Origin: a virus
Taxonomy: Duplodnaviria; Heunggongvirae; Uroviricota; Caudoviricetes
Strand: one strand, 5' to 3'
Virus record (IMG/VR): IMGVR_UViG_3300028832_000101
Coordinates: 113,380 to 136,493 of that record
DNA: 23,114 nt
Below, one piece after another: positions 1,015 to 23,114 of this stretch (position 1 is the first letter of the stretch; every line of letters starts with the position of its first letter). The notes beneath the pieces were generated by a model. The model did no database searches, was not told the origin of the DNA, and saw only the letters and a list, made by a program, of their open reading frames with translations. A program made the translations under genes and the position numbers.

Positions 1015-1029
1015 ATATAATTCCTCCTT

Positions 1030-1080
1030 CTTCTAAATCTATATTAAAATCGTCCATTTTATATTATCTATTTTAGCCCA
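1030..1080 (-). promoter_or_regulatory. Putative phage late promoter motif, copy 1
   Basis: TGGGCT-N18-TGGAC-N10-TAGATTTAGAAG; aligns without gaps to 8292..8342 (35/51 identical by hand count). Lies between a terminator and an RBS. Confidence 0.5.
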
Positions 1081-1115
1081 AATAAAAAAATAGGTAGTCA
1101 CTTAACTACCTATTT
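1081..1115 (-). terminator. Intrinsic terminator after the 330-aa gene
   Basis: Perfect 11-bp stem 1088-1098/1105-1115, 6-nt loop, followed on the minus strand by a U-rich tract. Confidence 0.85.
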
Positions 1116-1132
1116 ATATTTTATTTAAACTC

Positions 1133-2144: not shown

Positions 2145-2591
2145 TTAAATACTTTGATCTCCCATATCTTCTCAATTTAATTCTGTTCCCCCAACAGTAA
2201 GATAGTCTTGGAGATCATCGTTCCAACGATAAAAGTCTCTGTCTTTAACATAAATAGTGTTATCGACTCCCTCTTCAGGTAGACCTTCATCTGCAAAGAC
2301 TACCAATGGGTCTTCTCCTGTAAGTTGATGTCATTCATTATTAAAATAACTTCAAAATACACTTTCTTGTTTTGTATAATAGAAACCTTCAATAGGCGAA
2401 ATCATGGCTTTACGTACTTCATCATTTAACAATATCATGATTTGCGCATATAATTGTCTTTGACTATGTACATCTAGAAAAATTTGTCTAGTATCTTGAA
2501 CAAAGAGTAATTGACCATCTTTAATTGGGATACTATTTATTTTTCCAGAATTTGTAGCAATAAATTTCATAGAAGGATTTACTGTTGCCAT
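2145..2591 (-). CDS. Fibre-cluster protein, 148 aa under code 4 (3 in-frame TGA)
   Basis: ATG 2591 with an RBS-like purine tract. Reading TGA at 2352, 2331 and 2172 as Trp gives ...ESVFWSYFNNEWHQLTGEDPLVVFADEGLPEEGVDNTIYVKDRDFYRWNDDLQDYLTVGGTELNWEDMGDQSI ending at TAA 2145-2147, just before the next RBS. N-terminus resembles that of the 1..1014 fibre. Confidence 0.85.
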
Positions 2592-2605
2592 CTTCTTCAC
2601 CCTTC

Positions 2606-2956
2606 CTATTCAATTATATATAAAACAAGACTTCCTGTCATTTCAGTAATAATTTCTTGTTCCATTTCATATTTATCTTGTTCTGTAAAATAATCTATTC
2701 CTTTTACGGGGATAGGAATATAACCAGCATCTATTTCAGTGTGGTCAGACATTTTACAGAATAAGTGTCTACTCTCTTGGTCTAATTTGACATCGACAAT
2801 AGACACTCCATCTGCAGGAGTAGGAAAATGTATATCTACGGAATTCCCATCATTAGTAATAATTGTAAGGGTAGTTCCATCAACAATCATATCCGCAATA
2901 CCAGAAACTGCGGAAGTTGCTATTTTCTTACATAACGCATATGTAATTATATCCAT
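2606..2956 (-). CDS. Hypothetical structural/accessory protein, 116 aa
   Basis: AGGAGG RBS, TAG stop. N-terminus MDIITYAL is identical to that of the 443-aa gene. Confidence 0.75.
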   Translation of the reverse strand: MDIITYALCKKIATSAVSGIADMIVDGTTLTIITNDGNSVDIHFPTPADGVSIVDVKLDQESRHLFCKMSDHTEIDAGYIPIPVKGIDYFTEQDKYEMEQEIITEMTGSLVLYIIE

Positions 2957-2983
2957 ATATATTTCCTCCTCAATTATTTTTTA

Positions 2984-3784
2984 TTATTTTGTATATGTAA
3001 CCCACACATTATAAGTATAAATACCTGCATTGGCACTTTCCATAAATAAATTTGCATTATAAGTTGTGCCAGATTTTAATAAATAAACTGCGGCAGTAGT
3101 ATCAAATACTCCAGCATTTGCAGTTACATTCATGCAAGTGTATGGAACTGGACAAGTCCAGCTTTCACTAGGAGTAACAATATGTCCACCTTGAGCAATA
3201 ATATTAGAACATTTAGAAGCTAAAGGAATATCTTGTCTTACTTTTGAAGTAAGAGTTGTTGTTCCAGTAGCATGATATCCATAAACACCATTTCCGAAAT
3301 AAATTTCTTCATTTTCAGGCCATGTGTTTGGGAAATTAATATCATAGCATCCAGGTATTGTTATTGCACTATTTTTAGCATCTGTTTCTTTCGTATATTG
3401 AATAATTGCTAAATCATAAGTTCCTGGTTGTAAGAATTTTAATTCTATACTAGAACCATTAACAGTTCCGCTAGCAGGGCAAAAATCTTTATCAGATTTT
3501 AATGTAACAGAGATTATTTCATCTAAGCCATTAATATATGTATTTAAACCAGCTGTTAAATATTTTTCTCCTTGCCATTCACCAGTAATACTAGTTAGTA
3601 CAACTTTTTGATATAATGGTTTACCATTAATCCAAACTCCGATTATTTTTTCATCTTCTGTGTAAAAATCACTCACATTAGTTTTTAATGCTAAATTCGC
3701 ACCTAAATAAGGAGCAATTTTTTCTGAATATAATGTTTTTATATCTCCCTTAGTAACTAAGGTATTATCATTTTGTATAGCCAT
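2984..3784 (-). CDS. Putative receptor-binding/fibre accessory protein with two ...YTK-ending domains, 266 aa
   Basis: AGGAGG RBS, TAA stop. YTEDEKIIGVWINGKPLYQK motif is shared with the neighbouring gene. Confidence 0.65.
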   Translation of the reverse strand: MAIQNDNTLVTKGDIKTLYSEKIAPYLGANLALKTNVSDFYTEDEKIIGVWINGKPLYQKVVLTSITGEWQGEKYLTAGLNTYINGLDEIISVTLKSDKDFCPASGTVNGSSIELKFLQPGTYDLAIIQYTKETDAKNSAITIPGCYDINFPNTWPENEEIYFGNGVYGYHATGTTTLTSKVRQDIPLASKCSNIIAQGGHIVTPSESWTCPVPYTCMNVTANAGVFDTTAAVYLLKSGTTYNANLFMESANAGIYTYNVWVTYTK

Positions 3785-3801
3785 TCTAATTCCTCCTTAT
3801 T

Positions 3802-4641
3802 TTAATTTTCTAATTTTGTATATTGAATAGTTAAATAGAAACTATTTCTTTCTTGATCTGCTTGTAATAATCTTAATTTGCCTTTTGCAGTATAAGGAAT
3901 TGCATAAGAACTAGCATCTAAATAATAAGATGGAGTACCATATCCTTCTCCATAATATCTAGCTCCTCTTATATCAATTACTTTATCACAATTATTTGGT
4001 AAATCTCCAATAATGATATCAGACTCAGCTGATGCTGGTACTGTAAAGTCATAAGTTTTTTGATAAACAGGTTTTCCATCAATCCATCTACCTATAACTT
4101 GTTCTTCAGTTGAATAATTTAAACCATTTCCCATTAATACAGGAGTAGGTAATCCAACTTTTACAATATCATTAATAGAATCTGCAGATAAACCAATTCC
4201 TGAAATAACTGTTTTTTCACTTTCTTCATCATCTACAACTTTTAATCCTGTAAATTGTACAACAGGTTCTTGTACAAATGAAGTCCCAGCGCCATTTTGA
4301 ATTGAATGTCCTGGAGTAACAGTCTTCCATTCTACGTCTTGGTCTGCACTACTTTTCTTTACAAGAGCTTGTCCTGCAGTTCCTCCTATTGGAAATTGTG
4401 CATCTTGAGCTCCTGCTCCTAATTCTTCCCAGTTTGAGATAACAGTTGGATCGTTGCCAATTAAATGATAGACTTTATTTTCATTTTGAACTGAAACTAT
4501 CATTCCTTTATAGAAATATGGGAATGAATTTGCATCAGTTAATTCAGTCATAGATTTAACTAACATTCTTGCGTCTAGAGGAGCAGCAGCATTATTTTCG
4601 ATATTACTACTTAAAGTAAATGTACCTTTTTGTCTTGCCAT
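3802..4641 (-). CDS. Fibre/accessory structural protein, 279 aa
   Basis: AGGAGG RBS. N-terminal RQKG..PLDAR domain, GGTAGQALVKKSSADQDVEW fibre-type motif, C-terminal YSTEEQVIGRWIDGKPVYQK...QYTK domain. Confidence 0.7.
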   Translation of the reverse strand: MARQKGTFTLSSNIENNAAAPLDARMLVKSMTELTDANSFPYFYKGMIVSVQNENKVYHLIGNDPTVISNWEELGAGAQDAQFPIGGTAGQALVKKSSADQDVEWKTVTPGHSIQNGAGTSFVQEPVVQFTGLKVVDDEESEKTVISGIGLSADSINDIVKVGLPTPVLMGNGLNYSTEEQVIGRWIDGKPVYQKTYDFTVPASAESDIIIGDLPNNCDKVIDIRGARYYGEGYGTPSYYLDASSYAIPYTAKGKLRLLQADQERNSFYLTIQYTKLEN

Positions 4642-4656
4642 AATCTATTCCTCCTT

Positions 4657-6717
4657 TTAATTCCAAGTAATTTGTATTTTTCTACTACCAGCGCTATAAC
4701 CACGATTATCTGTATATCTGTTATAATTTACTGAAGTATTAGCAGCATTTTTATGTGTTGTAATTGTTTTTGTAAATTCGTTAGAACAATCTTCATATTT
4801 TCCTGATAATTCATTATAAGCTTTAATTGAAGTAATTGTCCAATCTGCAGGGATATCAAATTGTTCTGGGTTTAAAACTGTTTGAGTTGGGAATTCAAAA
4901 GTATAAACTCCTGTCGTTTTACTAACTAAATTTAATTTAGCTATAGTAGTAATATTTCCAGTATTAGCCCAAATTGCATTTACGAATTCATAATTTATAG
5001 TATTAGAATCTACAGAACCTGCAGCAAGTGGTTTATCATAATTATTTCCTTCACTATCCTTAGGTTGTTCTCCAGATGCATAATTAACAGTTGCGGTAAA
5101 TGATTTAGGACCTGAACCAATAATAGTTTGAGTCCAAGAATTTCCCGATTGAGCAGTTCCGCTATTTAATTTATAACCTGCAGCTACACCAGAACGATGT
5201 CCTGAAGTTCCATAAGTTGGATCAATAGATCCTCTATCAAATGCACAAGTAAATGTAACTGATAAAGAACCACCATCTTCAATAATATTATTTGAAGGAT
5301 TTGCAGTTAATTTAGCACTTGGATCTGTAAATGTTGGATAAAGAACTGGATCTAAAATTGCTCTAAATAAAGTTTCAAAAGAAGTTCCTGCTACGAAGAT
5401 ATCTCCGCGTTTAACTCCACCTACATCTTTAGATGCTTTTAAATCTGCAACAAGTTCTCCGCCTTCATCTTTACTTCCAGTTATTGTCATTGTAGTAACA
5501 ATTAATTCTTTATTTGAATTATTAATTGCAGTTACTTTACCAATAGTTCCTTCTGCATCATAAATTAAAGTTTCATTTAATACAATTTTATTAATATCAA
5601 TTCCTGCTACACTATTGATTGCAATAGTAGTAGTTTCATTTATAGTAGTATTTAATAATTCAGAAGTAATATATGTTCCATCTGATTTTTCTCCTACTAT
5701 AGTTGTAGTTGTTACAATTAGGTTTCCGCCTGAATGATTAGTAACAACACCCATTGTACCAGCGGCGTCATAAATTAAAGTTTCTCCAATTACGATATCC
5801 GCAGGTGTTAAATCTATTACTTCATCTTCAGCAATAGTAGTTGTTCCATCTATTGTTGTATTTAAAGTATTAGTTGTTTTATAAGTACCATCAGTTTTTT
5901 CTCCTGCAAAACTAATTGTAGTTGCAGTTAAAGTACCATTATTCTCTGCAGTAATAACTGCAATAGTACCAGCATTATCATAAACTAGAGTTTCATTTAA
6001 AACTAAATTAGCAATAGTTAATCCTGCAATAGAAGTATTTCCGCCAATAGTTGTAGATAATGTTGTATCTGTTTTATAAGTTCCATCTGATTTTGTATCA
6101 GTTGTAATTGTTTCAATAGTTAAAGAAGTTCCATTTTTTCCTGTAATAACACCAACTTTATCATTACCATCAAATACAAAAGTCTTACCTAGAACAATGT
6201 CATCTGCTGTTGCGGCAATGGCATTATTGTCTGATCTTTTTAAATTTGAAATAGTAATTGTTGTTGTTCCACTTGCATTTAAATCTGCAGTAGATTTCCA
6301 AGAATAAGTACTTCTATCTGGAGTTCCTAAAGCAACCCAGTCTAAATTATTATAATAATAATTTGTTTGTTCTGCAGCAACATAATACATGTCTCCTTCT
6401 TGAATTCCTGTTTTAGGTAATTTAGACATGTCTGCAACTACACCTTTATAAATTAATGCTCCTTCAATTGAGCCAGTAGTAACAGCTTTCCAATTTGAAA
6501 GATTACTATAATCATCAGCTGTTAAAATATATAAAGTTCCTTCTGAAATAACATAAACTTGCATACCTTTATAGATAAAGGCTAGTCCGTCTGAAACCCA
6601 AGACTTTGAGTCTGTTAAATCAGCTAAAGTTGGAACTGTATATCTAGCATCTAAAGGTAAAGCAGTTTTTACTTCAAAGTTAGCACTAACGTTCATTGTA
6701 CCTTTTTGTCTTGACAT
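4657..6717 (-). CDS. Fibre/accessory structural protein with internal tandem repeats, 686 aa
   Basis: AGGAGG RBS. PLDAR N-domain, four Thr-rich repeats, and a C-terminal ~250-aa domain paralogous to the 443-aa gene. Confidence 0.75.
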   Translation of the reverse strand: MSRQKGTMNVSANFEVKTALPLDARYTVPTLADLTDSKSWVSDGLAFIYKGMQVYVISEGTLYILTADDYSNLSNWKAVTTGSIEGALIYKGVVADMSKLPKTGIQEGDMYYVAAEQTNYYYNNLDWVALGTPDRSTYSWKSTADLNASGTTTITISNLKRSDNNAIAATADDIVLGKTFVFDGNDKVGVITGKNGTSLTIETITTDTKSDGTYKTDTTLSTTIGGNTSIAGLTIANLVLNETLVYDNAGTIAVITAENNGTLTATTISFAGEKTDGTYKTTNTLNTTIDGTTTIAEDEVIDLTPADIVIGETLIYDAAGTMGVVTNHSGGNLIVTTTTIVGEKSDGTYITSELLNTTINETTTIAINSVAGIDINKIVLNETLIYDAEGTIGKVTAINNSNKELIVTTMTITGSKDEGGELVADLKASKDVGGVKRGDIFVAGTSFETLFRAILDPVLYPTFTDPSAKLTANPSNNIIEDGGSLSVTFTCAFDRGSIDPTYGTSGHRSGVAAGYKLNSGTAQSGNSWTQTIIGSGPKSFTATVNYASGEQPKDSEGNNYDKPLAAGSVDSNTINYEFVNAIWANTGNITTIAKLNLVSKTTGVYTFEFPTQTVLNPEQFDIPADWTITSIKAYNELSGKYEDCSNEFTKTITTHKNAANTSVNYNRYTDNRGYSAGSRKIQITWN
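5470..6315 (-). repeat. Protein-level tandem repeats of about 65-76 aa (three clear, one degenerate)
   Basis: Units begin DGTY at aa 211, 276 and 346, with a consensus like DGTYxTxxxLxTTIxxxTxI...xVLNETLxYDxxGTxxxxT...LxxTTxxxxGEK. A degenerate unit spans aa 135-210. Confidence 0.85.
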
Positions 6718-6730
6718 ATATTATTCCTCC

Positions 6731-8062
6731 TTAATTGAATTGAATTCTAACCTTTCTATCTCCAGCAGCACAAGCTCTGTTATCAGTATATCTTACGTAG
6801 TTAACAGTTTCTCCGCCTGCATTTTGATGTGTAGTACTAGATGTTGTAAATTCACTAGCACAATTTTCCCATTGATTATTTATTGTATTTAACATTTCAA
6901 TAGCAGTAATATTCCAATCACTTGGAACTTCAAATATTTCAGGATGTTCAATAGATTGAGCTGGGAACTCAAATACATAACTTCCAGAACCTTTACTAAT
7001 TAAATTTAATTTAGCAACATTTGAAATATCTGCTGTGTTTGCATATAATGCATTTACAAATTCATAATAAATTTGATTTGTTGTTAAAGAACCTGCAGCT
7101 AATGGTGTTTCATAATTGCCGCCTTCATCATCTAAAGGTTGTTCACCTTGAGCATAATAAACAGTAGCATAGAAAGGACCTTTATTAGTGTCACTTACTG
7201 TTCTAGTAAATGTATTTTCTGCTTGTTCATTTCCTCCATTTAATTTATATCCTGTTGCAGCACCTGCTCTGTAACCAGATGTTCCATATGCTGGATTAAT
7301 AGAGCCACGATCAAAAGTAGCAGTGAAAGTTGCGTTAATAGTTTGACCACATTCAGCTAACTTATCTCCTGTTCCTTCTAAAGTTGCGCTAGGATTAGTT
7401 AAAGTAGGATAATTTGTTTTTAATAGCATATTGATTACAATTTCTTCTAATGATGTGCCTTTTGGGATTACTGTTCCAACTACATATTTTCCTTGCTCAC
7501 ATTTAACAGTTATATCTCTACTAAGTGGGATATTTGGTAAAGAACGATAATCTGCATCAGCAGAACTCCATGCTTTAAATTCATTTGTATCTTTAATAGC
7601 ATATAGAGTATTTTCTTGTCCTATCGCAGGTAATTCATTTTCACTTGCAACTTGCTTAAATGATTCAACATTTGCGTCCATGACAGTTTTAACAGTAACT
7701 TTTGTACTTTGACTTGAAATAATTAAACCTTGTATTGCATTTATACCAATAACTTCTGAGCCTTCTGAATAAGCAACAGTTGGAGCAATTACTTCAACTA
7801 AGTCTGTTTTGTTAATATCAATAGTTTGTCCTAATGTAGTAGGTAAACTAGTAGATGTTGTATATACACCAGATCTACCTGCTGTACCCACAGCAATATA
7901 GTTTTCAGTTGATTCGTCCCAATAATAAGTTTGACCTGTATCTTTTGTAAGATATAGAGCGCCAATACCGCCCTTTTCAGGAAGGTCATCATAAGAATTT
8001 ACTTGCGTCAATCTGTTTCGATTTGAATAGCTTTTGCTAAGTGCGTAAGTAATTATATCCAT
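6731..8062 (-). CDS. Fibre/accessory structural protein, 443 aa
   Basis: GAGGTG RBS. Two short LPxxG..LYxxKDT..W motifs; C-terminal domain (FDRGSIxPxYGTSG...GEQPxDxEGxNY...YEFVNA...RYTDNR) paralogous to the 686-aa gene. Confidence 0.75.
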   Translation of the reverse strand: MDIITYALSKSYSNRNRLTQVNSYDDLPEKGGIGALYLTKDTGQTYYWDESTENYIAVGTAGRSGVYTTSTSLPTTLGQTIDINKTDLVEVIAPTVAYSEGSEVIGINAIQGLIISSQSTKVTVKTVMDANVESFKQVASENELPAIGQENTLYAIKDTNEFKAWSSADADYRSLPNIPLSRDITVKCEQGKYVVGTVIPKGTSLEEIVINMLLKTNYPTLTNPSATLEGTGDKLAECGQTINATFTATFDRGSINPAYGTSGYRAGAATGYKLNGGNEQAENTFTRTVSDTNKGPFYATVYYAQGEQPLDDEGGNYETPLAAGSLTTNQIYYEFVNALYANTADISNVAKLNLISKGSGSYVFEFPAQSIEHPEIFEVPSDWNITAIEMLNTINNQWENCASEFTTSSTTHQNAGGETVNYVRYTDNRACAAGDRKVRIQFN

Positions 8063-8087
8063 ATATTCACCCTCTTATCTTATAAAA

Positions 8088-8279
8088 TTATTGTTTTACC
8101 CATTCTTTGTTAGAGTTCAACATATACACATCAGCAGTCTCAATTACATAAACAACACTACCTGTACAAATATCTTTATAACTTGGGTCATCAAGTACAT
8201 AAGGTAATTCGTCAAGAGTGTCAATCATAATTTCAAAGTAATTATAATCTTGTCTACCACCTTGTCTTATTGTATACAT
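8088..8279 (-). CDS. Small phage protein, 63 aa
   Basis: AGGAGG RBS, TAA stop. DTLDELP...GSVVYVIETADVYMLNSNKEW resembles small tail-associated proteins of Bacillota phages (recognition only). Confidence 0.75.
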   Translation of the reverse strand: MYTIRQGGRQDYNYFEIMIDTLDELPYVLDDPSYKDICTGSVVYVIETADVYMLNSNKEWVKQ

Positions 8280-8291
8280 ATTTTATTCCTC

Positions 8292-8342
8292 CTTCTAAAT
8301 CTATGTAAATTTTATCCAAAATAAATTGACTTATTTCGGCCA
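8292..8342 (-). promoter_or_regulatory. Putative phage late promoter motif, copy 2
   Basis: TGGCCG-N18-TGGAT-N10-TAGATTTAGAAG with the same spacing as copy 1; begins right after the terminator U-tract. Confidence 0.5.
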
Positions 8343-8375
8343 CAAAAAAAAAGAACTAGAATTATTCTAGTTCTT
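8343..8375 (-). terminator. Intrinsic terminator overlapping the holin 3' end
   Basis: Perfect 11-bp stem 8351-8361/8365-8375. The 3-nt loop is the holin TAA stop. Followed by a run of U. Confidence 0.8.
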
Positions 8376-8808
8376 CTCCTTCATCGATATCTTCTGAATC
8401 TTCAATAAATCCTGTTATTAAAGCATTTGCAACTTTAACTTGCATTAATTCAATAATACCTTCTAAAGCTTTTTTGCCTTGAGTTACGATAACAGTGATA
8501 ACGATTCCTAATACTGCAGTAGCACTTAATACATCAAGTGTTTCTCCAGAAATTAATTCAATTCCACATTGAGCGGAAATCATATCATTAATGAATGGTA
8601 ACATAGTAAATGCTACAGAAATAAATACTGCGCAAAGATAGAATACTAAAGATTTTCCTAAACCTTTTAATAAAATACTCCAACTAAATGATTGTCCTTC
8701 ACTCATGTTTTTAATAATTCCGCAAATTGTATTCACAAATACTAAGATTGCTAAGACAATTCCTAACCAACCCATAATTTGTAAAATTGACATAATTTTA
8801 TCGTACAT
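8362..8808 (-). CDS. Holin (phage_holin_4-like), 148 aa
   Basis: Three hydrophobic segments, FSWSILLKGLGK motif, strongly acidic C-terminal tail, directly downstream of the endolysin. Confidence 0.8.
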   Translation of the reverse strand: MYDKIMSILQIMGWLGIVLAILVFVNTICGIIKNMSEGQSFSWSILLKGLGKSLVFYLCAVFISVAFTMLPFINDMISAQCGIELISGETLDVLSATAVLGIVITVIVTQGKKALEGIIELMQVKVANALITGFIEDSEDIDEGEELE

Positions 8809-8822
8809 GTTCTTCTCTCCTT

Positions 8823-9554
8823 TTAATTTTTCTTTTTAACTTGTGCACCGCTACTATCTTCTACACATAGCCAAGTATTTTTAGTTTTACCCCAAACATT
8901 TCCTTTGCTATCTGTTGCGAATTCTCTAATAGTAACTGTTACACCAATTTTATATTTAGCATATCCCTTGTTGTCTGAAATACATTTAGGTTTTGCTTCA
9001 GCTGATAATCTACTATATTTTACTTTATTAGTAGTTAATACTTCAGGAGTACATCTTATATATTTATGTTGTAATGTAATATAGTCTCCTGGTTCCCAAG
9101 TAATTGGAGTAGGTGCTGGAAGTCCAACCAATTCTTTTCTTCCGTAAGCATAATCAGTTGGGTTAATAGATGAACTATTTCCACCTTTATCAATTTGGAA
9201 ATGTAAATGTTTTCCTGTCGAATGACCTGTATTACCCATTTCCGCAAGATATTGACCTTTCTTTACATATTCCCCTTCTTTTACGACAATACTGCCGCTT
9301 TTTAAATGATAATATGCAGATTGATAAGTCTTATGTTGAATTCTAACCTTACACATAGTACCATTATTTTCTCCCTTATTTACCACTTTTACAACTTTTC
9401 CATCTGCGGTTGCTACTATTTGAGTACCTCCAACTAAATCAATACCATAATGATGGTCAACTACCCATTTACCATTATATTTGTATTTTCTAGTTTTATT
9501 AGGTCCTGTGTACGCAGATGTAGTTTTTAACTTGTTAGTTACAACTGGTTGCAT
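8823..9554 (-). CDS. Endolysin: M23 family zinc endopeptidase plus putative SH3-like wall-binding domain, 243 aa
   Basis: HYGID (HxxxD) and HLH (HxH) zinc ligands, YYHL motif, LPAPTP linker. Start reassigned to ATG 9554, which follows AGGAGG, rather than 9575. Confidence 0.9.
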   Translation of the reverse strand: MQPVVTNKLKTTSAYTGPNKTRKYKYNGKWVVDHHYGIDLVGGTQIVATADGKVVKVVNKGENNGTMCKVRIQHKTYQSAYYHLKSGSIVVKEGEYVKKGQYLAEMGNTGHSTGKHLHFQIDKGGNSSSINPTDYAYGRKELVGLPAPTPITWEPGDYITLQHKYIRCTPEVLTTNKVKYSRLSAEAKPKCISDNKGYAKYKIGVTVTIREFATDSKGNVWGKTKNTWLCVEDSSGAQVKKKN

Positions 9555-9555
9555 A

Positions 9556-9774
9556 TTAGGCCTCCTTCTTTTCATCTTTCTTTTCAGATTCTACTTCCTC
9601 AGCAGGGATATCTGCTTGAGGAGTAGATTCTGATTGTTCTCTTTGAAGTTGTTGCTCATAAAGCATCGCAACTTCATTGAATATATCTTTTAAAACATAA
9701 TAAATTGCATCAATAGTTAAATTACTATTGTTAATATCTTCCGCAATTTTTTGTTTAAAGTCATTTAATATCAT
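9556..9774 (-). CDS. Hypothetical protein, 72 aa
   Basis: Fills the gap between the tail tip gene and endolysin. GAAAGAAGG RBS; its TAA abuts the endolysin ATG (TAAtATG). Confidence 0.75.
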   Translation of the reverse strand: MILNDFKQKIAEDINNSNLTIDAIYYVLKDIFNEVAMLYEQQLQREQSESTPQADIPAEEVESEKKDEKKEA

Positions 9775-9799
9775 TTTAAAACCTTCTTTCTTTTTTATG

Positions 9800-12700
9800 T
9801 TAATTTAATTTTATATATCCATACACTTCTGCTCAACCCGTAAGAATTCCAGTATCTTGTCCTATAGTTCTTGCTGGATGACTTTCATCTACTTGTCGAG
9901 TGGCTCAAGAATCTGAAGATTTTATTGAAATATTAAAAGTTCTCGGTTGATTTGTAGCAGCTCCAAATATATTAGCAAAATCTTCAGTTTCTTGAATTTC
10001 CATTCCATCATCAGTAAAAGTTATATTATCATTTGTAATTGGATGTTGTCCCCAGTCTGGAACATTCCCACCGATAAATGCATAACTATTATAAAAACCA
10101 TAACCTGTTTGTCCTAAATTACTAACATGATAAACTTTTAAATGCTTACATTTACCTTTAAAATCTTGCTTAGGTTCGTCATCCCCCCAAATCATACAAG
10201 TATGTTGTAATATAATTTTAGCTTTAGTTACAGTAAAATTCGCGGGAATTCTAATACTAAAATTTATTCAACTTTGTCTAACCTCAAAAGGTCCAAAATT
10301 TGAATCACAATTTCAACCAACTCATCCTGCAGTATCTCCATCATATCCATTTGTCCAAGCTCATCCTCATATCTCTCCTGGAAAAGTTAGATTCGTAAGG
10401 ACTCCTTTGCTTCCATCAATTACTCCTCCATTAATAGTTGCCAACTTACATGTCAATTCTCCATTAGCGTTAACTGAGAAATTTTCATTACCCCATCTAA
10501 TTTCTGGAGTGTTTAAATCTATTTTCATTCCACTTTGGCTTTCAACAGAATAATTACCACTAACAATTGTTGCTGTATCTTGAGTAGGATCTAATATAAT
10601 TTTACCTTGGCTAGCTTTACCAAACTCTGCCTTTCCTGTCTCTGCATCTAAGAAGATAGTTCTTTCTCCATTGTTAAATGCAAATAACCCTTGTTCAGTT
10701 TTTCTAGTTTCATTTTCTTTTACTTTTCCCATTAATAAACCGGTAAAAGTATTAGTTACAGGATCCTTCGTTCCGGCTCCAATTTGAGGAGATAAAATTG
10801 TTCCTTTTCCATTATCTAATGAAATATGATTTCCATCTCATCCATTAATTGAAGCGATTCCAAATTTATTTAAGAAGAAATGAATTGGTATATGAAGTTT
10901 TCCAACTTCTGTTAAATTAGCAGTTAAAATTTTGACTTCTACTGCATTAGTTACATTTTCTCCATCATAATTATCATCAGGAACAAAAAATTTTGAATTT
11001 CCTGTTAAATTATCTGTTGTTAAATGTAAATCATCAACCCAATCAGTTCCATTAAATATTTTTCCTCTTATACTTCAATTATATGAAACTTTATATTTAT
11101 TATTAATTTCAGTAATATCTTCTCATATATTGTTTATTTTTTGTTCTACTTGAATTTTAAAAGGATTAGTATTACTATATTGAGGTTGTTTTCCTGCACT
11201 ATCATATTCTACATATCTAAAACCAGAACCTTTTAATAATTTAATTTTATAATCATTATTTTGAGTTCCAACTATAACTGGTAAAGTACAATAATAAATT
11301 TTATCTTTATAAGTAACAGTCGCTTTAACTATATCCGCGCCATCCTCAACATAATCATTATAACTAAATAATCCATTATCATAAATAATAGAACTAGAAT
11401 CATATAAAACATTAGCATATCTATTTTTTAAAATACTCCATTCAATATTTACATTTGATGTAACACTCGAATTAGTTCCTTCCCATTTCATTTCTCCATC
11501 TTCTCAAATTTGAACTCTAAACCATTTTCCATCATTAATAGGTGTAAAATTTGGTGTTCCATTCATTATCATTGGATATTCAGTAAATTCTTCCCTAGTA
11601 TTAGGAATAATTTTACAAATAATACTAGTTCCATTTGTTCCAGGTTCTCCATCTTTTGAAAAAGTAAATGATGTATTTGCATTTAAATTTAATGTTTTAT
11701 ATTTTACATTTAAATTAATTGTATTATTTCTAATCTTAGTTATATCATATTTATCTTCAATAGAAAAAGGTAATTCTAACTCATTTAAACTTTGACCCTC
11801 TTCTATCTTTATTAAACTATTATTTTTTGGAATTGTCCAGTTAATTTCGCATTGTTCTAGAATATCTGTTCCTAATAATCTACCATTACTATCTATAATA
11901 TTGAAAGATAAAGGTAATATTTCAATTGGATTTTCTAAACTTCTATTTGTAGGTGAGATACCCATATTATCATAACTAAAAGTTTGCATACCATTATTTA
12001 TTACTAAAAAATATTCTCCTTCAATAGACAAATTATTAGTAATAAGAATTGATGCTGTTCCTATTGGTAAATTATTAATATCATATGCAGTACATTTAAA
12101 AACACCAAAATCTATAATTTTAGATAAATCCACATTAATAATTTGATTACCTTCAACTCTTTGGATATTTTTATAACTGTCTAAAATAGCTTTTTGTGTA
12201 TCTAACTCTTCTTGAGTTGCATTAGGCATTAATACCCCTGCATCAATTAAAGCCAATAGTCTAGTATATTCTGCTTTTGCGGCATTATATATATTATTAT
12301 CTTCAGTTGTTTCTGCTAGTAAAGTCACTTTCTCGTTATTATCATAATAACTCCATTTATAACTAATCTCTGAGGCAGGAACATCTCCAGTAATTCCTAC
12401 TAAACATGTTAATGTAGGGGAACCATTATCATAATAAAATTCAGTCCCACTATCACTTTCAATGGCAATTTCATAATTAGCTCCATAATTATAAATTTCA
12501 CAATAACCTTCTGCTATTATTTCACCATTTCTAACTCCGACACATTTAATTAGCATTCTTAAACTTTTTACACTATATTTATCAATTAAATTAAAATTAA
12601 CTCCAGGAATATAATTCTTTTTTCCAGTTGTAATATCTGTAATAGTATAATCATTAATACATTCTCAACCATTTCCGCCATATATAGTATAATTAACTGA

Positions 12701-13699: not shown

Positions 13700-13734
13700 A
13701 AAAACATCTCCTTTTCTCTCTAAATTTATTCCTT

Positions 13735-13780
13735 ATTATATTTTTAAAAATTAAATAAAAATATTATTTATTTTGGTCCA
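13735..13780 (-). promoter_or_regulatory. Putative late promoter motif, copy 3
   Basis: TGGACCAAAATAAATAAT right after the terminator U-tract; TATAAT at 13740-13735 with no recognisable -35 at 17 bp. Confidence 0.45.
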
Positions 13781-13817
13781 AAATAAAAAAGAGATAGTCT
13801 TTTATTAACTATCTCTT
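13781..13817 (-). terminator. Intrinsic terminator overlapping the tape measure 3' end
   Basis: Perfect 10-bp stem 13789-13798/13808-13817. The loop contains tandem TAA TAA stops. A U-rich tract follows. Confidence 0.8.
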
Positions 13818-16800
13818 CTTTCTCCAATTCTTTGGCTAGCTGAATTTACTAAGTTGTTTAATGCGGCTTCTATTTCCGCAGAGTTTCTTACATTAGGGAA
13901 TTGAGCATCAATATGAACAATTTGTTCAAGAGCTCCATCATTTGGAGTACTATTGATACTAGCTGCGCTAGCTCCTGCTAATCTAGCAAGAACATTACTT
14001 CCTAACATTTCTGTTAAGTTTCTCATTATAGCAACAGTATTAAGCATATTTGCAGTATCACTTGCATTTAATACTAATTCTTTTTGATGTAGCATTGCAA
14101 GTCTACCACTATTATCCCAAGTACCAGTATAACCACCAGTATCATATCCAGTAATTTGATCTTGTCTAATCCATCCTAAAGCTCCACCACTAGTTGTTGC
14201 AATATGAATTGGATATGGTCTACCATTTTTTACAATAGTAATCTTAACTTGAGTACCAGCTTTCTTACTACCGCTTCCACCTCCACCATAGGAATCAGCA
14301 TAATATCTTCCGCCTTGGTAAGTAACTACTTCTCCAGGTTCAGGAGAACCGTTTCCGCCTCCGCCAGAACCTCCTCCAGTATTTATATCTGTGCTTGGTG
14401 CGGCAGGTTGTGGAGCAGGAGTAGGAGTTCCACTTGCACTAGAAGTTGTTTGAGTTTGATTTTTATATTCTTCAGCTTGTTTTTCTTCTGAAGCATGCTT
14501 GTAATTATAAGCCTCTTCCGCAATTTGTTTAGCAACTTCTAATTCCCTTTCTCTCAATTTTAAATTTTCTTTTAATTGAGAATATATATCTTTAACTGCT
14601 TGTAATTCAGTTCCATAAGTATTTATAATTTCTTCATTTACACCAATTAATTTTTGTGCTTCTGTAATAGCCTCATCTTCACCATTAATAATAGTATCAA
14701 AAGTTCCATCTGCTACTCTATTAAGGTCTTCAATTTTTTCATTATAATCTTCTTCTGCGGCTATCATCTTATGATATGTTTCATCAAGAACTGCAGCAAT
14801 TCCGCCTTCGCCAATAACATAGTCCATAGATTCTTTCATACCATTTGCATATGTTGGAATATATTCTTCTAATATAATTTGTTTAGCTCTATCGGATGCA
14901 TTCATTAATGAGTCAATTGCTAATTCATTAGATCTTGATATTTCTTCAAAAGCTGAATTAGTTAAATTTTGATTTGCAACAGAATAATCTGTCATAACTT
15001 GTTGTAATAACTCATTATATTGTTGAATAATTAATTGACGTTCTTCTAATTGTTTAGCTGGATCCGCGATATCAACTGTAGCTTTTAATTTTTCTTCTAA
15101 CTCAGTTAAACCATCACTTCAATCTTTTGCTAAACTATTAAATCTTTCTTTATCAAAATTATATAAACTATTATATAAATCATCTACTTTATTTTGAGCC
15201 TCTGTTATAGCATCATTATCTGCTATATATTGATATGTGTAATTACCTTGACTATCTCTTCTTAATCTCATTTGAGATTTATTTTGTTGAGCTTCTTCAA
15301 GAGCAATTCTAGCTAACTCAATTTCATAAAGTTTATTGGCTCTATCAACATCATATTGAGTAAGTCTATCTCTTTCGCGGAGACCAGTAAGTTGTTCATC
15401 CATAACCTTTTTCAATTTTTGTTGTTTACCAATATTATCTGTTTTATTAATTGCATCTACATATTTCTTTTCTAACTCTCTTATTGCATAAGTAGAATTA
15501 ATTGTATCTAAATATCTATTTGCATTTTTATTTATTAAATCTCATTGTTCATTTATATAACTTAAACCTAAGCCATTAGTAATAACTTCTTCCCATTCTT
15601 TATACATACCATTAACTAAATTATGTAATTCATCTTTAGTCGCTTCTATGGCCGCAGTACTAAGTTCTTTAACTTGAGTGATTGCCGCTTTTAATTTTTC
15701 AGTAGCATTTTCTCTTTCTTCTTCTGTAAGTTGTTCATTTTCAAGTCTTTCTCTCCAGAAGTTTTCTTCCATTTTAGCATATTCTAGTTGTTCTTTTAAT
15801 GCTTGTTGTTGTTTAGCATAATATATTTCTAAATCTTTATAAGCATCTTCCCCAAGTAATAATTGAGTTAATTTAATATCATGATTAATTAAATCTCTTA
15901 GATATTCATAATTTTCAATTTGTTTATCAAATTTTTCTTGAACCTCATCCATTTTATCTAATACATCTTGTAATGCATCATTTTCTAGGTCACGAAGCTC
16001 ATCAATTGAATTCATTATTTTATCTAATGCTTCTTGTAATTGATCTAAGCCTTTAGCTTCATTATTTCCGAAGATATTATCTTGACCACGTTTCATTTTT
16101 TCTAAATTATCTAAAGCTTCACGTAAATGTCTAGTTTCGGTTTGAATATCTCCATTTCCACTATTATTAAAGTAAGTATTAAAATCCTTTAATCTAGTAG
16201 AGATATTACCAAATATATCTTCATCTTTAAATCCCTTAATATTTTTCTTATACCATTCATTCCAATCTCTTGTTGCTTGATTCATATCAAGAGTAACTTC
16301 AATTTCTAAATTGAATTTTTGAATATTTAATTCAATTTGTTTATCAATTGCATCTTGAATAGATTGTTGTAAATCTGGAATAAAATCAGTAACTAATTCA
16401 TCATATCTATCAATATCTTTTTTAAATGCTTCAAAATCTTTTTCAGCTTTTTTAAGAGTATCTTCATATTTTTCTTGTTGTTCTTTAGACATTTTATTGT
16501 AATTGTCATATAAACTATTTACATAAGCCTCTTGCGCCTTAATTGCTTCTGCATAATTTGCAACAGTACCATCTGAATTAAAATATACTCCCTTATTAGA
16601 TAAATTATTTGCTAATTCTTTTTGTTCATCATTAGCAATTCTTAATTTTTCAGTATAATTACTAATTTGAATATTTAATTGATTTCATTGAGCATTTAAA
16701 TTATTAATTAAATTACTACCAACAAATTTTTCTTGTTGAGATTCTAATTTCTTTAAAGCATTATCTACTTTTGTTATTTGAGCATTGACTTTATGATATC

Positions 16801-19800
16801 TATCGATGTCTGTTTCAATATGCTCTTTTTTACTTGGTTTACTACTACTTCCGCCTTTTTTACCTGTAGCAGCAGCTTTATAGTTACCTTTACTTCCTAC
16901 TGTTTGTTTAGTTTGTTTTACTTCAAAATTTCCATCTCCAACAACAGTAAAGTTTTCATTTTTAGGTGTTGTAGTCTCAATCCATGCATAATCTATATCG
17001 ATAACTCTCTTTTGTCTCTCTGGATCAGTAGATGAAGGATCATAAGCTGGGTTTGGCATTTGACCTGAATAAGTATGTTGAACACTTTGACTTTCAGTAG
17101 AGAATGTCGCTGTTTCAAAAGTTAATTTTTCAGGTTTATTATAAGAAATTGGAATTTCAATTCCAAGTTGTTTTGATAATTCATTGATTTCTGCTATAGA
17201 CATGTCAGTAGCATTTATCATATTTGCTAAAGTTTGTGCATATTTTTTTTCTAATGATTGACCCACATCTTGAGAATCAATAGCTTGAATAATATCTTCA
17301 AAACTCATTCTTGCATTGCTTAATTCTGCTAAGGCTTTTTCACTAGAACCAAAAGCACCTTTTAAAGCATTTAATCTACTTAAAGTATATAATGCTTCAT
17401 AAGCTTTTTCTGCTTCTTTTTCAGTTCCTGTTAATAATATATTAATTTGTTTTAATGTTTCCGCATCTTTAAAATCATCAGAAGTAAGAACAATTCCCAT
17501 TTCCTTTAATTGATCTACAACTTCTCCAACAGCATCTGCAACATCATAACTTACTTTTTCACCATTCTTCATGGCTTTAGCATAAATTTTTATTGCATCA
17601 GCATTATTTTCGTAAGCTTTTCTTGCATCGTTATAAGATTTATTAAATTTATAACTTGCTGCAGCTGCGGCCGCAGTATCTTTAGTTCTAGACTTTTCAA
17701 TATCCCCTGACTCTTCTAATGTAGCGGCATATAAAGTTAAAGCAGTTTTAGTTGTTTTTAATGCTTCTGCTTGTCCTTGTAAAGTATTATTATATTCGTC
17801 TAAATCAGATGCAATTCTTTCAGGTAATCTGCCTCATTCATCTGTAATATCTAATAATCCTTTATAATATTCTTCTATAGATTGACCATCAGGAAGTAAA
17901 CTTTCTAATTTTCCAATTTCACCAGGATTACCTGCAGCTTGTAAAAGACTTAATTCACCTGTTGTTAATTGTTTAAGATTATCTTCAGTAAAACTATCTG
18001 ATTGAAGTTTTAATAATGCTCCAGCAACATTTGATTTAGAAGTATCTGTTTCTATTGGTGAGCTAATCGTATCAACTCGATCATATACTTCTTTTACTTG
18101 ATTAAATATTTCTTCAAGATCTTTCTTACCTTCATAATTTGCTCTATTGCTTATTCCTGCATCCTTAGCTTCAACATATCGTTTAGCGTCCTTATCCATT
18201 CCTCCTGCAGCTGCATAAACTCCTCCAGCTAAATCTAAGACACCTGCAATAGGATTTCAAGTTCAAAAATCTTTTACACCTTGAGCTTCTCTAGAAGCTG
18301 ACATACCAGCACTAAATTTATCCATCCAATTTCCTGAATAAATTTTATTCATTGCTTGTGCAGTGGTTGAACTATCTATATTTTCTGAATAAGCTCTATT
18401 CCATTTGTCAAATTTCTCATAATCTGTCACATAACGATCTCGAATTGCACTTTTTTGCATTTCAGTCATTGAGTTATATCTATTAGTTTGGTCTTGATCC
18501 ATTGTTGCAATCATATGTTGAGTGGCAGTATAACTAAGTTGTTCTCTATCTTCTGCAGTCAATTTTTGGAATTCTGGATTTCAATTTTCAATAGATTCTG
18601 AAATATCTTGACCATTTTGTTTAATTGCATCAACAGTTTGATCTGTATCATTTTGTAAAGCACCTAATAAAGGTAGCGCTCATTCTCCCTTTTCGCTAAT
18701 TTGACCTATATTAACAGGATTTTTAGAACTTGCATTTTCAAGAATTTTTCTACCTTGATCATTATCTATCCAGTAATAACTTCTTCTATTTACATCTTTA
18801 GTAAATTCACTAGTAATTTCATTTTTTCTTTGTTCTCTTCTATAATTATCTACTCTATATTGAGCGTAAGCAGTATCTGCTTGTTGTTGTAATAATTTTT
18901 TATTTTGTTCAAAAGCTCCTTTTTCTAGAGCTTCTTGTGAAATTTCAATTTTTCCACTGCTTCCAACAACATAATCTTTTCCTGCTATTAAATTTAAAGT
19001 ATCAATTAATTTTAATGCTTGCTCATTTGATTTTATAATTGCTTCATAAAATTCTACAGTTCCTTCGGTTAAAGAATCTATAGAAGATCTAGCATCCTCA
19101 TATGAAGTTAATGTCTCTTTAAAATCACTATATGCAGTTTGAGCTTCTTCTAATTGTTTTTTATTTAACTCTAATGTTTGATTTAATTTATATTCTTCTG
19201 AGTTTAATTCTTTAACATGCTCTAGATATTTATATATTGCTACACCAAGTGCTGCAGCTCCAGCTACAGCCGCCACTGCTAAAACAACTCAATTTCCCAT
19301 TAAAGCATTTTTAATTGTTAATAAACTATTTTCCATTATCAAACCAGGAATAGTTTTTGTTGTTCTTTGAGTATTATTAGCTCCATCTGCTACTGTATTT
19401 TTAATTTCTGCAGAGGTATTCTCATTTTTTACTGCGGTGTTAGCTTTTGTAAGGCCTGTCTCAGTAGTTAATAAAGCATTTCTTTTTGTTAAAGAAACAT
19501 TTTGTTTTTCTAAAACTAATCTAAAATTTGAAAAAATTGAAGTAACTTTGTTTCAATTTGCTAATAAAATTGGCGCTTGTACAATAAGTATGGCAAAAAT
19601 ACTTTTAAATTTTTCCCATCCACTCATTTCTTCATCGGACATTTTTAGTATTTTTATAATACTACCTAAAGATTGTAATGCTGAGAATGTAACTGCTATT
19701 CCAGATATTAAATTTTGATAAGCTTGTGCAGTTGCCGCTTGTTGTTGTGCAGATCTTACAGATTCATCTATAGCATTCTTATGTTGTTTTTCTTTTTCAA

Positions 19801-22051
19801 GAGTTCCATCTTGAGTCTTTTGATATTGTTTAGCCGCTTCATTAAAGGCTTCAGATTTTTTACTTAAATCATCAATTTCTTCTTGACGTTCTTGAAATTT
19901 ATCATTTATTTCTTTGTTTATTGAATGAAGCTTTTCCTCATCAGCTAAATCTTTAATATATCCTTTTCTTTTCTCTTCTTCGACTCCCGCAACTTCTAAA
20001 GCTAAATCTATTTCTTGTTCTCTTGATTTTATTATATCTTCTCTATCCTTTGAAGAAGCAGAATTTAAATCAAGCATTAATTCATCAATAGCAGATTGCG
20101 CATCTGATAATTTTTCAGTTTCTCTTGTTGCTTGTTGTGATAATTGAACACTTCTTAGTTGTAAATTATTTATATTTCCTAAATATTCTTCATCTTCTTC
20201 TAACCAACCAGCTGTATTTTTTAAATTTGTTTCTCAATTTTCGGCTGCCCCAATCGATTCAGATAATTGTCCATATATTTGTTGTTGAGTTGCTAATTCT
20301 TCATAATCTTCTTTAGAAATATTTTGTCTAATTTGAAGTAAATCTAAAGAATATTTAGCTTCTGCTTGAACTCTTTCATCACTAGGGCTTTCGGCACCAT
20401 TTAATTCATAATCATTACGGATATTATTAGCAAGTTCTTGTTTAAATGCATCTGCATCTCTATTTTTGGTTTCAATATCAAAATTATTATTCATTCTTGC
20501 TGCGGCAGAACCTAATTGTTTACTAAATAAAGCAATTACATTTCCACCTAATATTCCAGTTAGATTATCTCCCAATCCAGTTAAATATGTATTAATACCT
20601 TTTAAAGCTCCGGTTAGCATATCTACGAAACCTTTAATTGATTTTTCATCTAAAAGTGTATCGTAAAATTTTTCAGCTTCAGTAGATAATTGTTGTAAAT
20701 GAGCTTCTAAGCTATCTAAATAAATTTCTTGTTGAGATTCTAATTTACCTGCAGATGTTTCCGCAGTAGTTAAATTAGTTTGGAATGTTTCCCAATTATC
20801 CATTAATGCAATTAATTGAGTATATTGTCTTGTACCGGCAACATTTTGTGCTAAAGCAACTTTTTGCGCATTATTTAATGTATTCCATGTTGCACCCATT
20901 TCATTCAAGATAGCATCCATTGTTTTTAATTCGCCATTACTATTTTTAATACTAATACCAACACTATTTAATGCTTCTGCATATTTACCTAATGTAGTAC
21001 CATCTTCTAAAGTTTCTCCTAATTCCAAATCTTGAATACGAGCAAATAATGTTTTAAATGCAGTACCTACAGTATCAGCACTTTGACGAGTCTCTGCAAC
21101 TACAGTAGCTAGTGCACTAGTAGCATATTCATAACTTAATCCTACTGTACCAGCAACTGCCGCGAATTTTTCTAGACCTTCAGAAATTTCTTCGGCACTT
21201 GAAGCTGTACTTGCTCCTAATGCAGTAATAACATCTGCATAATGTTCAAGTGATTTTGAGCCATCATCAAAATTATTTCAAATAGCAGTCATATATTCAG
21301 AAACTTCTTGAGTAGAAGTTCCTAATACATTTGCCATTTTTACAGTAATGTCAGTTCTATCTGTAACATCTTTACCTGTTAAACCTTGTTGATAGTAAAT
21401 TAAAGATGCTTTTGTATAATCTAAAGTAGAAGCACCTAATTCTTTTGCAGATTGATTTGCATATTTAGCAAATCTTTCCATTTGATCTGCAGTTTGACCA
21501 CTAACAATTCTAATATCATTTAAAGATGTATCTAAATTCTTTACATAACTATAGGCTTTTTCTAATGAACCTGTAAATGAATTAAATATACTTGAAGAAA
21601 TACCAAATCTAATAGTATTTGCAAAAGTTAATGCCATTTTATTTAATAATTCACTAGATTGTTTTAATTGAATATTTGTATTTAATACAGAACTAGCAAT
21701 ATTATTAAAAGCGGTTGTTCCGGCTGAACCAAGGTTATTTAATTGTGTTCTAAATTGTTGAATTCCGCCATAGGCTTGATTAATTTCTTTTTTGAAATTA
21801 GTTATATTTAATTGTCCACTTTTTAAATCCCAAGATTTACTTAAAACGCCAGAAAGTTTTTCAGCTTCTCTTGCAGCTTCTTGGAATCCTTTTTTTAAAT
21901 TAACTCCACCCATCCAGTTTTCGGATTCAAAAGATGATTTAATTTTTTGTGCGGACACAAGTAATTCTTCTAACTTTTGTCTAGACGCATCTAAATTCTT
22001 ATTATCAGTTTCAAACTTAAGACCTATGCGTAGTTCATTCTTTGTAACCAT
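13805..22051 (-). CDS. Tape measure protein (TP901-type N-terminal region), 2748 aa under code 4 (12 in-frame TGA)
   Basis: Ten track ORFs share one frame, and all gaps are free of TAA/TAG by hand translation. TGA at 21278, 20234, 19553, 19289, 18680, 18581, 18263, 18257, 17834, 16685, 15542 and 15119. Typical motifs: LDTSLNDIRIVSG, TALGASTASSAEEI, TVGTAFKTLFARI, LAQNVAGTRQ and C-terminal YDTGGYTG...LHQKELVLN. Long coiled-coil; AGGAGG RBS. Confidence 0.93.
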
Positions 22052-22080
22052 ATCCTTTTTCCTCCTTTATATTTTTACAG

Positions 22081-22124
22081 AAAATAAAAAATCCTTCTTA
22101 TCATATATTATGATAAAAAGGATT
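22081..22124 (-). terminator. Long hairpin / intrinsic terminator upstream of the tape measure gene
   Basis: 16-bp stem 22090-22105/22109-22124 whose only mismatch is a G-U wobble in the minus-strand RNA; a U-rich tract follows. Confidence 0.75.
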
Positions 22125-22147
22125 ATTCTATTAATTTACTTTGACCT
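22107..22147 (-). promoter_or_regulatory. Putative late promoter motif, copy 4, overlapping the hairpin
   Basis: AGGTCAAAGTAAATTAAT matches the GGNCNAA-N7-AAT core of copies 1-3; CATAAT at 22112-22107. Confidence 0.35.
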
Positions 22148-22676
22148 AGTTAGGTAATTGATTATTGTTTACAGATTTTGCATATTCTAATACATTTTTA
22201 AATTTTTCTTTATCAAAACCATCAACTAATTTTTGAATTTCATCTGCTTGAGTTTCAAAATTAGCTAATAAATTATTAAGTACTCCAGCAAAAGTATTTT
22301 GATTTTGATAAATATCTTTCATTTGTTGATTCAATTTAGATACTAAATCATTATATTCTTCTTCATTCATTGCCATAATGATTTTATCTAATAAACCATT
22401 ACTTTTTAAAGCATTATATATTTTTAAAGGTTCTTCTTTTTGTTTTTCTGTAAAAGTAATATTAGTATACATCATTACTATATATAAATTAAAAAATGCA
22501 TCTAATAAAGTTGGATTAAAAATAGAATCTTGTTTAGATTGTTCTAAAGAAATATTAATTAAAGCATTTTTATCTTCAATAGGTAAATATTGTAATACTT
22601 CAATATCTGTACCTTCAACTTTTTTAATTTCTTCATTTATTTTTAATTTTAGACTTGAATAAGTTATTTTTGCCAT
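22146..22676 (-). CDS. Hypothetical protein, possible tail assembly chaperone, 176 aa
   Basis: AGGAGG RBS, TAG stop, helical/acidic. The chaperone call rests only on its position upstream of the tape measure gene. Confidence 0.6.
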   Translation of the reverse strand: MAKITYSSLKLKINEEIKKVEGTDIEVLQYLPIEDKNALINISLEQSKQDSIFNPTLLDAFFNLYIVMMYTNITFTEKQKEEPLKIYNALKSNGLLDKIIMAMNEEEYNDLVSKLNQQMKDIYQNQNTFAGVLNNLLANFETQADEIQKLVDGFDKEKFKNVLEYAKSVNNNQLPN

Positions 22677-22706
22677 AACTAATTCCTCCTTTTCTCTCTT
22701 ATATAA

Positions 22707-22735
22707 ATTATAACATAAATTTTTTTACTATGCAA
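22707..22735 (-). promoter_or_regulatory. Sigma70/sigmaA-type promoter with extended -10
   Basis: TTGCAT (22735-22730), 17 bp, TATAAT (22712-22707), preceded by TG (TGTTATAAT); about 30 nt upstream of ATG 22676. Confidence 0.6.
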
Positions 22736-23114
22736 CTTTATCTAAATTTAAACTTAATTCCATAGTAATATTTCTATTTCTAATATCATTGATAATCATT
22801 CGGCTACGAGTTTCGCCTTCTTTGTTGCTAGTAGGATCAGTTTCTTTTTGATAATATCGATTATGAGCATTTTTTATATTATATTGATGCTTTTGAAGGT
22901 CTGATGAAACATAACTTTGATCATCTTTCTCATTAGAAATTTTTTCCATAATTTCTGCAACATTATATACTTTATCATTAATTACCATAAATCATGCAAA
23001 ATCATCTTTATCAAGCGATCCCGCTAATGCTAATGGTAAAAATGCAGCATGGAAATAATCATACATATCTTGCATTGCATTTTGCGCATCTTTATTTAAT
23101 TCTGCTGGTAGTTT
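22728..23114 (-). CDS. Hypothetical protein (partial, enters from the right edge; 1 in-frame TGA)
   Basis: The frame stays open from the edge through TGA 22992 (…DKDDFAWFMVIND…) to TAG 22728; 128 aa visible. The track start at 22988 has no RBS. Confidence 0.75.

Follow-up and report, generated by a model that had tools for sequence, protein, structure and literature searches.

The window examined here is a 23,114-nucleotide stretch that forms the last 23 kb of one 136,493-bp IMG/VR virus record (IMGVR_UViG_3300028832_000101, positions 113,380 to 136,493). In our view the window very likely covers the tail and lysis genes at the end of a complete ~136-kb siphophage genome in which TGA encodes tryptophan, with the late genes switching code by means of a phage-borne tRNA that has a UCA anticodon, tRNA(UCA). 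The two contig ends (genome 1-502 and 135992-136493, the latter being window 22613-23114) overlap by 502 bp at 98.6% identity with 7 mismatches, and the genome is therefore closed and complete at ~136 kb, despite its IMG/VR listing as linear and 91% complete. The 7 single-nucleotide polymorphisms (SNPs) between the terminal copies suggest that two strain variants are present in the assembly. The genome has a G+C content of 29% and belongs to an SPbeta/EF1-like siphophage of virulent type, whose terminase is SPbeta/YonF-like. The nearest cultured relatives, at 44% TerL identity, are Enterococcus phages H1 and EF1, Geobacillus virus E3 and an Alicyclobacillus phage, while the TAG-recoded gut phage phAss-1 shares 43% TerL identity. 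Four frames in the window carry in-frame TGA codons:

13805..22051, minus strand: tail tape measure protein of 2748 aa, with 12 in-frame TGA and 16 TGG codons; it matches PF10145 at 97.7 bits as well as several PHROG tape-measure families.
9800..13699, minus strand: tail protein of 1299 aa, with 13 TGA and 11 TGG codons; the gene comes next after that of the tape measure protein, a location that fits a distal-tail or tail-associated protein.
2145..2600, minus strand: small tail-fibre-associated protein of 151 aa, with 3 TGA codons and 1 TGG codon.
22728..23114, minus strand: C-terminal portion of a gene for 494 aa (genome 116-1600) that runs across the joined contig ends, with 1 TGA codon.

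The first-pass annotation, made from the sequence alone, counted 29 in-frame TGA codons in four genes. That count is confirmed as 3+13+12+1 over four minus-strand frames; the fourth frame does hold one TGA, but it is the C-terminal part of the 494-aa gene and not a 115-aa gene. The 2748-aa and 1299-aa frames are, as had been claimed, free of TAA and TAG before their ends. The other five frames of the same DNA contain TAA and TAG at 0.068-0.074 per codon, and the odds of a frame remaining open by chance are therefore 10^-84 for 2748 codons and 10^-44 for 1299 codons. Such odds tell strongly against the idea that the TGAs are assembly errors or belong to decaying pseudogenes of a defective element, which the metagenome-assembled origin of the contig might otherwise invite. 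Contigs from other samples also carry TGA at the same Trp sites, and the TGA of the 494-aa gene is present in both overlapping contig-end copies, even though these differ by 7 SNPs; we give the error and pseudogene explanation next to no weight. All 15 of the gene ends in the window use TAA or TAG, in agreement with the earlier count; there is some circularity in this, since TGA had been taken as a sense codon. Independent evidence comes from homology, which continues across every testable TGA. For the 494-aa gene, five relatives yielded no homologue, and the evidence on its TGA consists of the frame statistics and the duplicate contig end.

The identity of the inserted residue was assessed by aligning the recoded proteins to their homologues with X at the TGA sites. 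The 1299-aa tail protein belongs to a large family without a Pfam or PHROG name (177 homologues at E <= 1e-5), and its TGA columns 345, 732, 875 and 954 hold tryptophan in 120, 117, 112 and 120 of 120 homologues, respectively; the remaining TGA columns of this protein lie in variable or gapped C-terminal regions. In the tape measure protein, TGA columns 258 and 2170 are tryptophan in 120/120 and 116/120 homologues, tryptophan is the commonest residue at columns 833 and 1789, and the remaining columns are hydrophobic or gapped. Two motifs that the first-pass annotation had singled out as tryptophan-like, MTAI*NNF and SING*DGN, both have tryptophan at the TGA in 120/120 homologues. The 151-aa protein, which has 379 relatives in a library of 1.84 billion proteins, shows tryptophan at its TGA columns 83, 90 and 143 in 90, 99 and 72 of 100 homologues. 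The paralogue parallels drawn earlier for such sites (to YYNNLDWVAL and LLEWETL) are not significant by BLASTP (E 0.4-2.5), but the tryptophan assignment at the same three positions is upheld by these true homologues. No well-aligned column at a TGA site is dominated by glycine, cysteine or gene ends. A reading of TGA as another residue, be it glycine (code 25), serine, or selenocysteine or cysteine, is scarcely credible. Its glycine version can point to column 1144 of the tail protein, where 94/120 homologues have glycine, yet this column sits in the poorly aligned, gap-rich C-terminus, and the well-aligned, conserved TGA columns are all tryptophan. A code 25 phage of Absconditabacteria or Gracilibacteria was likewise considered and rejected, as TGA is not aligned with glycine except at that one poorly aligned column.

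Several observations weigh against a late-gene code switch that rests on TGA as tryptophan and a phage-borne tRNA. The lysis genes and seven of their neighbours have no TGA at all, contrary to the preferentially recoded lysis genes described by Borges et al. (bioRxiv 10.1101/2021.08.26.457843; Nat Microbiol 2022), and lysis itself is therefore not gated by TGA in this phage. G003, a relative that is complete and TGA-recoded (TerL 84%, 131,615 bp, direct terminal repeats), has 26 tRNAs and no detectable tRNA(UCA); no short-stem tRNA-Trp was found in it either, and its tRNA-Trp(CCA) is ordinary. A phage-borne suppressor is thus not universal in the lineage and not the whole story there. Some early or middle open reading frames (ORFs) have a TGA no more than 10 codons from their end and may still stop at it. 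Coding density is ambiguous as well. In the comparison that the first-pass annotation had suggested, calling genes with TGA as sense raises genome-wide ORF density from 0.771 to 0.884 and lengthens the mean ORF from 190 to 274 aa, with the values taken from a crude longest-ORF caller and not from Prodigal; the gain under code 4 is larger than the >5% that Borges et al. use to call recoding on contigs of at least 100 kb. Reading TAA as sense also lifts density, to 0.874, although without longer genes, and density alone is therefore weak, non-discriminating evidence in this AT-rich genome. Coding density around tRNA loci was uninformative, these loci being mostly tRNA arrays. Finally, some of the homologues had themselves been translated with TGA as tryptophan, and the test was therefore repeated on codons. 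At this phage's TGA sites 345, 732, 875 and 954, TGG stands in three homologues that are correctly translated with table 11, which also argues against any residue other than tryptophan. At the same four sites of the tail protein, four TGA-recoded relatives have TGA or TGG, and recoded relatives have TGA at this phage's TGG sites 449, 621, 754 and 887. By these codon comparisons, TGA and TGG are interchangeable in this lineage, which establishes TGA as tryptophan. Protein columns and codons together bear out tryptophan as the meaning that the first-pass annotation had judged the best fit.

TGA codons are unevenly distributed over the genome. The late and structural genes hold most of the recoding, and the early genes can be read with the standard code; a TGA-free island of lysis and fibre genes, discussed below, departs from this pattern. 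The plus-strand replication block, which encodes GyrB, GyrA, NAD-ligase, DnaB, RecJ, Pol III alpha and the anaerobic NrdD, uses 11 TGA versus 104 TGG codons, whereas the late regions genome-wide use 114 TGA versus 175 TGG, such that TGA makes up ~39% of their Trp codons. The base that follows a sense TGA in late genes is T in 10/114 cases, versus 40/175 after TGG, a weak signal (chi-square p = 0.01). A T following TGA is the strongest termination context for release factor 2 (RF2), and the rarity of T would fit avoidance of that context. A promoter and terminator scan of positions 8000-23114 gave no enrichment over shuffles (79 versus 93 expected, and 4 versus 3.5) and is silent on transcription units.

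The split between early and late genes also bears on the possibility that the host itself uses code 4, as Mollicute-type bacteria do, with the phage merely following its host and no code switch taking place. The AT-rich genome (29% G+C) resembles those of code-4 bacteria, and no gene in the window requires TGA as its stop. A code-4-adapted phage would nevertheless have no reason to avoid TGA in its replication genes, or to carry its own tRNA(UCA). The endolysin is an M23 peptidoglycan hydrolase and the tape measure homologues bear LysM or PG_binding domains, which together point to a walled host. The TerL relatives infect standard-code Bacillota, with Enterococcus, Bacillus, Geobacillus and Clostridium among their hosts, and sister lineages use the standard code or are TAG-recoded. 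A code-4 host is therefore very improbable. The host is most likely an anaerobic Gram-positive bacterium, and its use of the standard code is inferred from three features: the endolysin, the hosts of the TerL relatives and the low TGA content of the early genes.

In such a host, the proposed code switch would proceed as follows. The early genes, nearly free of TGA, would be translated by unmodified host ribosomes. The phage tRNA array would be transcribed, including one tRNA that combines a UCA anticodon with the acceptor identity of tRNA-Trp (A1:U72, G73). The host tryptophanyl-tRNA synthetase (TrpRS) would then charge this tRNA, as the phage has no synthetase of its own. The first-pass annotation had suggested looking for TrpRS and RF1/RF2-like genes in the rest of the genome; the closed genome contains no PF00579 (tRNA-synthetase class Ib), PF00472 (RF-1) or PF03462 (PCRF) domain, and charging would therefore have to be supplied by the host. 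Once charged, tRNA(UCA) may outcompete RF2 at UGA, and full-length tape measure, tail and other virion proteins would appear only after decoding by this tRNA. Recoding would in this way serve as a translational gate on the late genes.

The TGA-free island at 2606-9575 stands out within this late region, with 27 TGG and no TGA codons; at the late-gene TGA share of 0.39, the probability of 0/27 is 1.3e-6. The island and the other genes of the window are arranged as follows:

2606..9575, minus strand: TGA-free tail-fibre and lysis block, with fibre genes of 116, 266, 279, 686 and 443 aa, a 63-aa ORF, a 148-aa holin-like membrane protein and a 250-aa endolysin.
22146..22676, minus strand: gene of 176 aa with zero Trp codons, located upstream of the tape measure gene at the place of a tail assembly chaperone; its PHROG match is phrog_30570 (E 4.9e-18).
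Within 1..2125, minus strand: C-terminal 338 aa of a 1470-aa tail-fibre protein that matches phrog_38707 and has a peptidase-like N-terminus; its 2 TGA codons are both outside the window.
Within 1..2125, minus strand: 330-aa fibre protein, with no TGA and 1 TGG codon.

The endolysin is an M23 peptidase (PF01551 match at 78 bits). In the five closest relatives, orthologues are lacking both for it and for the 443-aa fibre, the only hits being two short M23-domain matches at 35-38% identity, and the C-terminal domain of the 443-aa fibre recurs in table-11 contexts, including a 568-kb bacterial contig. The island is probably a host-range and lysis module that was acquired recently by exchange with a source using the standard code. 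It indicates that standard-code modules can enter a recoded phage, and it suggests that the barrier which recoding sets to gene exchange is weaker in this inward direction than in the reverse.

The same island lends weight to a different account of the late-gene pattern, in which TGA is still tryptophan and its clustering in late genes is without regulatory function. In a phage that carries a suppressor tRNA, AT-biased drift from TGG to TGA would be tolerated wherever translation follows production of the tRNA, and the pattern would reflect tolerance together with module history. The stretch of 27 TGG codons without a TGA lies amid the late region and is absent from the closest relatives, so TGA content there tracks module ancestry and not expression class; TGA and TGG also swap freely between relatives. 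Drift alone does not readily account for the very sharp contrast between early and late genes, which recurs in unrelated recoded phage clades (Borges et al.). We regard drift without regulation as rather unlikely, though worth keeping in view, and drift and a translational gate are not mutually exclusive.

The tRNA on which the proposed gate depends lies outside the window. The phage has an array of 25 tRNA genes and a transfer-messenger RNA (tmRNA); 24 of the tRNA genes were called by ARAGORN, and tRNA-His was detected by Rfam only. The tRNA-Trp(UCA) for which a search had been proposed is represented by a single tRNA(UCA) of 96 nt (genome 42162-42257, minus strand). The Rfam tRNA model matches it at 56.6 bits and assigns UCA to the anticodon loop, with 23 nt modelled as an insertion in the variable region. 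Its acceptor start A1:U72 and discriminator G73 are as in the phage's own tRNA-Trp(CCA). The 23-nt insertion is a hairpin with a 5-bp stem and a 7-nt loop, CUCCAAA, that is identical to the anticodon loop of tRNA-Trp(CCA).

This two-arm design is conserved beyond the present phage. A pattern scan of IMG/VR retrieved 15 contigs with the same design, and a second scan without the variable-region condition added further lineages that have other acceptor and D arms and again UCCAA in the long-arm loop. An alignment was made of 20 distinct phage tRNA(UCA) sequences, seven of which came from the scan without constraint on the variable arm. All 6 modelled pairs of the variable-arm helix change on both sides, and 5 are well kept; the loop UCCAA is invariant, G73 is found in 20/20 and A1:U72 in 17/20. 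Carriers of the two-arm tRNA include phages with TerL 83% and 79% identical to that of this phage, and also one at only 32%. The minimum free energy of tRNA(UCA) is not significant (z-score -0.75), and the support for the fold is the covariation.

The long variable arm also bears on the readings of TGA as serine or selenocysteine. The 96-nt tRNA is class-II-like, and with its long variable arm and G73 it resembles tRNA-Ser; the variable-arm loop, however, copies the Trp anticodon loop, which is no feature of tRNA-Ser. ARAGORN labels the tRNA 'SeC', but a selenocysteine tRNA was rejected, since the acceptor/T branch is an ordinary 7/5 and not the 8/5 or 9/4 (13-bp) form, A1:U72 is a tRNA-Trp signature, and the TGA sites align with tryptophan.

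With tryptophan as the residue, the second arm may have a role in charging. The CCA anticodon is an identity element by which bacterial TrpRS recognizes tRNA-Trp. Tentatively, and as the most economical account, we propose that the UCA arm decodes, while the second arm, a copy of the CCA anticodon stem-loop, could present host TrpRS with the anticodon that it requires. A tRNA that splits decoding from TrpRS recognition in this manner would allow a code change without a phage synthetase. Should the proposal be correct, the tRNA would exemplify a natural 'decoy anticodon' strategy for codon reassignment, and it would answer a question left open by Borges et al., namely how host synthetases charge phage suppressor tRNAs. 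A literature search found no published description of a CCA-bearing variable arm on tRNA(UCA).

Other RNAs in and around the array are observations in their own right. The tmRNA (genome 38829-39202, minus strand) has the tag peptide ANKVKSLFTVNALSFA, and a tmRNA also adjoins the tRNA arrays of related contigs L011, L014, L015, L021 and L022. The 3' half of an OLE RNA (RF01071, 118.6 bits, with the conserved core motifs aligned) lies at genome ~43790-44016 on the minus strand, directly 3' of tRNA-Gly; OLE-like matches of 85-109 bits occur in four related phage contigs (L013, L014, L016 and L018), and a literature search found no paper on a phage-borne OLE RNA. The tRNA-Ser at genome 42735-42825 (minus strand), which has a counterpart in G003, has an unusual anticodon, ACU, with A in position 34.

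Relatives of this phage were reached through TerL loci and genome searches, as no related locus was found with the single tail protein as query. Against 50,697 phage records, megablast with the whole window gave no match, and tblastn with the 1299-aa tail protein gave as its sole result an 8% match to phAss-1. Among IMG/VR relatives, the code varies with TerL identity: those at 84% or above are mostly TGA-recoded, those at 70-80% are mostly standard, and those at ~60-65% are mostly TAG-recoded. Several changes of code have therefore taken place over short distances inside a single TerL clade (58-93% identity). The first-pass annotation held the phenomenon of recoding to be known and the lineage to be possibly new. 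The former is correct, and the pattern matches the published model (Borges et al.); the latter does not hold up, as IMG/VR contains relatives with 84-93% TerL identity that are TGA-recoded too, and the lineage is very probably known.

The recoding has practical consequences for annotation. Under table 11 the genome is badly mis-annotated, with the tape measure gene broken into 13 pieces and the tail protein gene into 14. A closed, well-documented genome from a clade with three codes among close relatives is well suited to the study of code change over short evolutionary distances, and the two-arm suppressor tRNA makes the charging problem testable. To a specialist, this tRNA, outside the window, would be the most surprising part.

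Several known systems resemble this phage in part. Agate phages are large Firmicutes phages that include a ~127-kb TGA-recoded lineage; their replication genes use the standard code, codes 4, 11 and 15 occur within the clade, and some members have a suppressor tRNA (Borges et al., 10.1101/2021.08.26.457843). By published description only, the present phage resembles them in genome size, Firmicutes host type, structural genes with TGA as tryptophan and mixed codes. It differs in its lysis genes, which are TGA-free here, whereas lysis genes are preferentially recoded and recoding is tied to lysis control in Borges et al. The phage phAss-1, of the proposed Phassvirus (PMC10607447), is similar in its size of 135,976 bp, its EF1-like group, its recoded virion genes and its tRNA array with suppressors and no synthetase; there, however, TAG is read as glutamine through tRNA(CUA), while here TGA is read as tryptophan. 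The Jade phage 'code change module', which consists of a suppressor tRNA, TrpRS and RF1 (Borges et al.), shares the use of a phage tRNA(UCA) to read TGA as tryptophan. Unlike Jade, this genome is without TrpRS or RF1, and it would therefore rely on a host synthetase.

Similar parallels apply to the tRNA itself. The tRNA-Trp(UCA) of code 4 in Mycoplasma and Spiroplasma has the same codon meaning and the same anticodon, but it is an ordinary class-I tRNA and serves the code of a whole organism, whereas the phage tRNA has a CCA-bearing arm and serves part of a virus genome. The opal-suppressor tRNA-Trp(UCA) of E. coli likewise has a UCA anticodon on a tRNA-Trp body. A long variable arm is shared with class-II tRNAs and with allo-tRNAs (Mukai et al., PMC5389517). 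In contrast to tRNA-Ser, tRNA-Leu, tRNA-Tyr, tRNA-Sec and allo-tRNAs, the variable arm of the phage tRNA is built like an anticodon arm in both geometry and loop sequence (5 bp and xUCCAAx).

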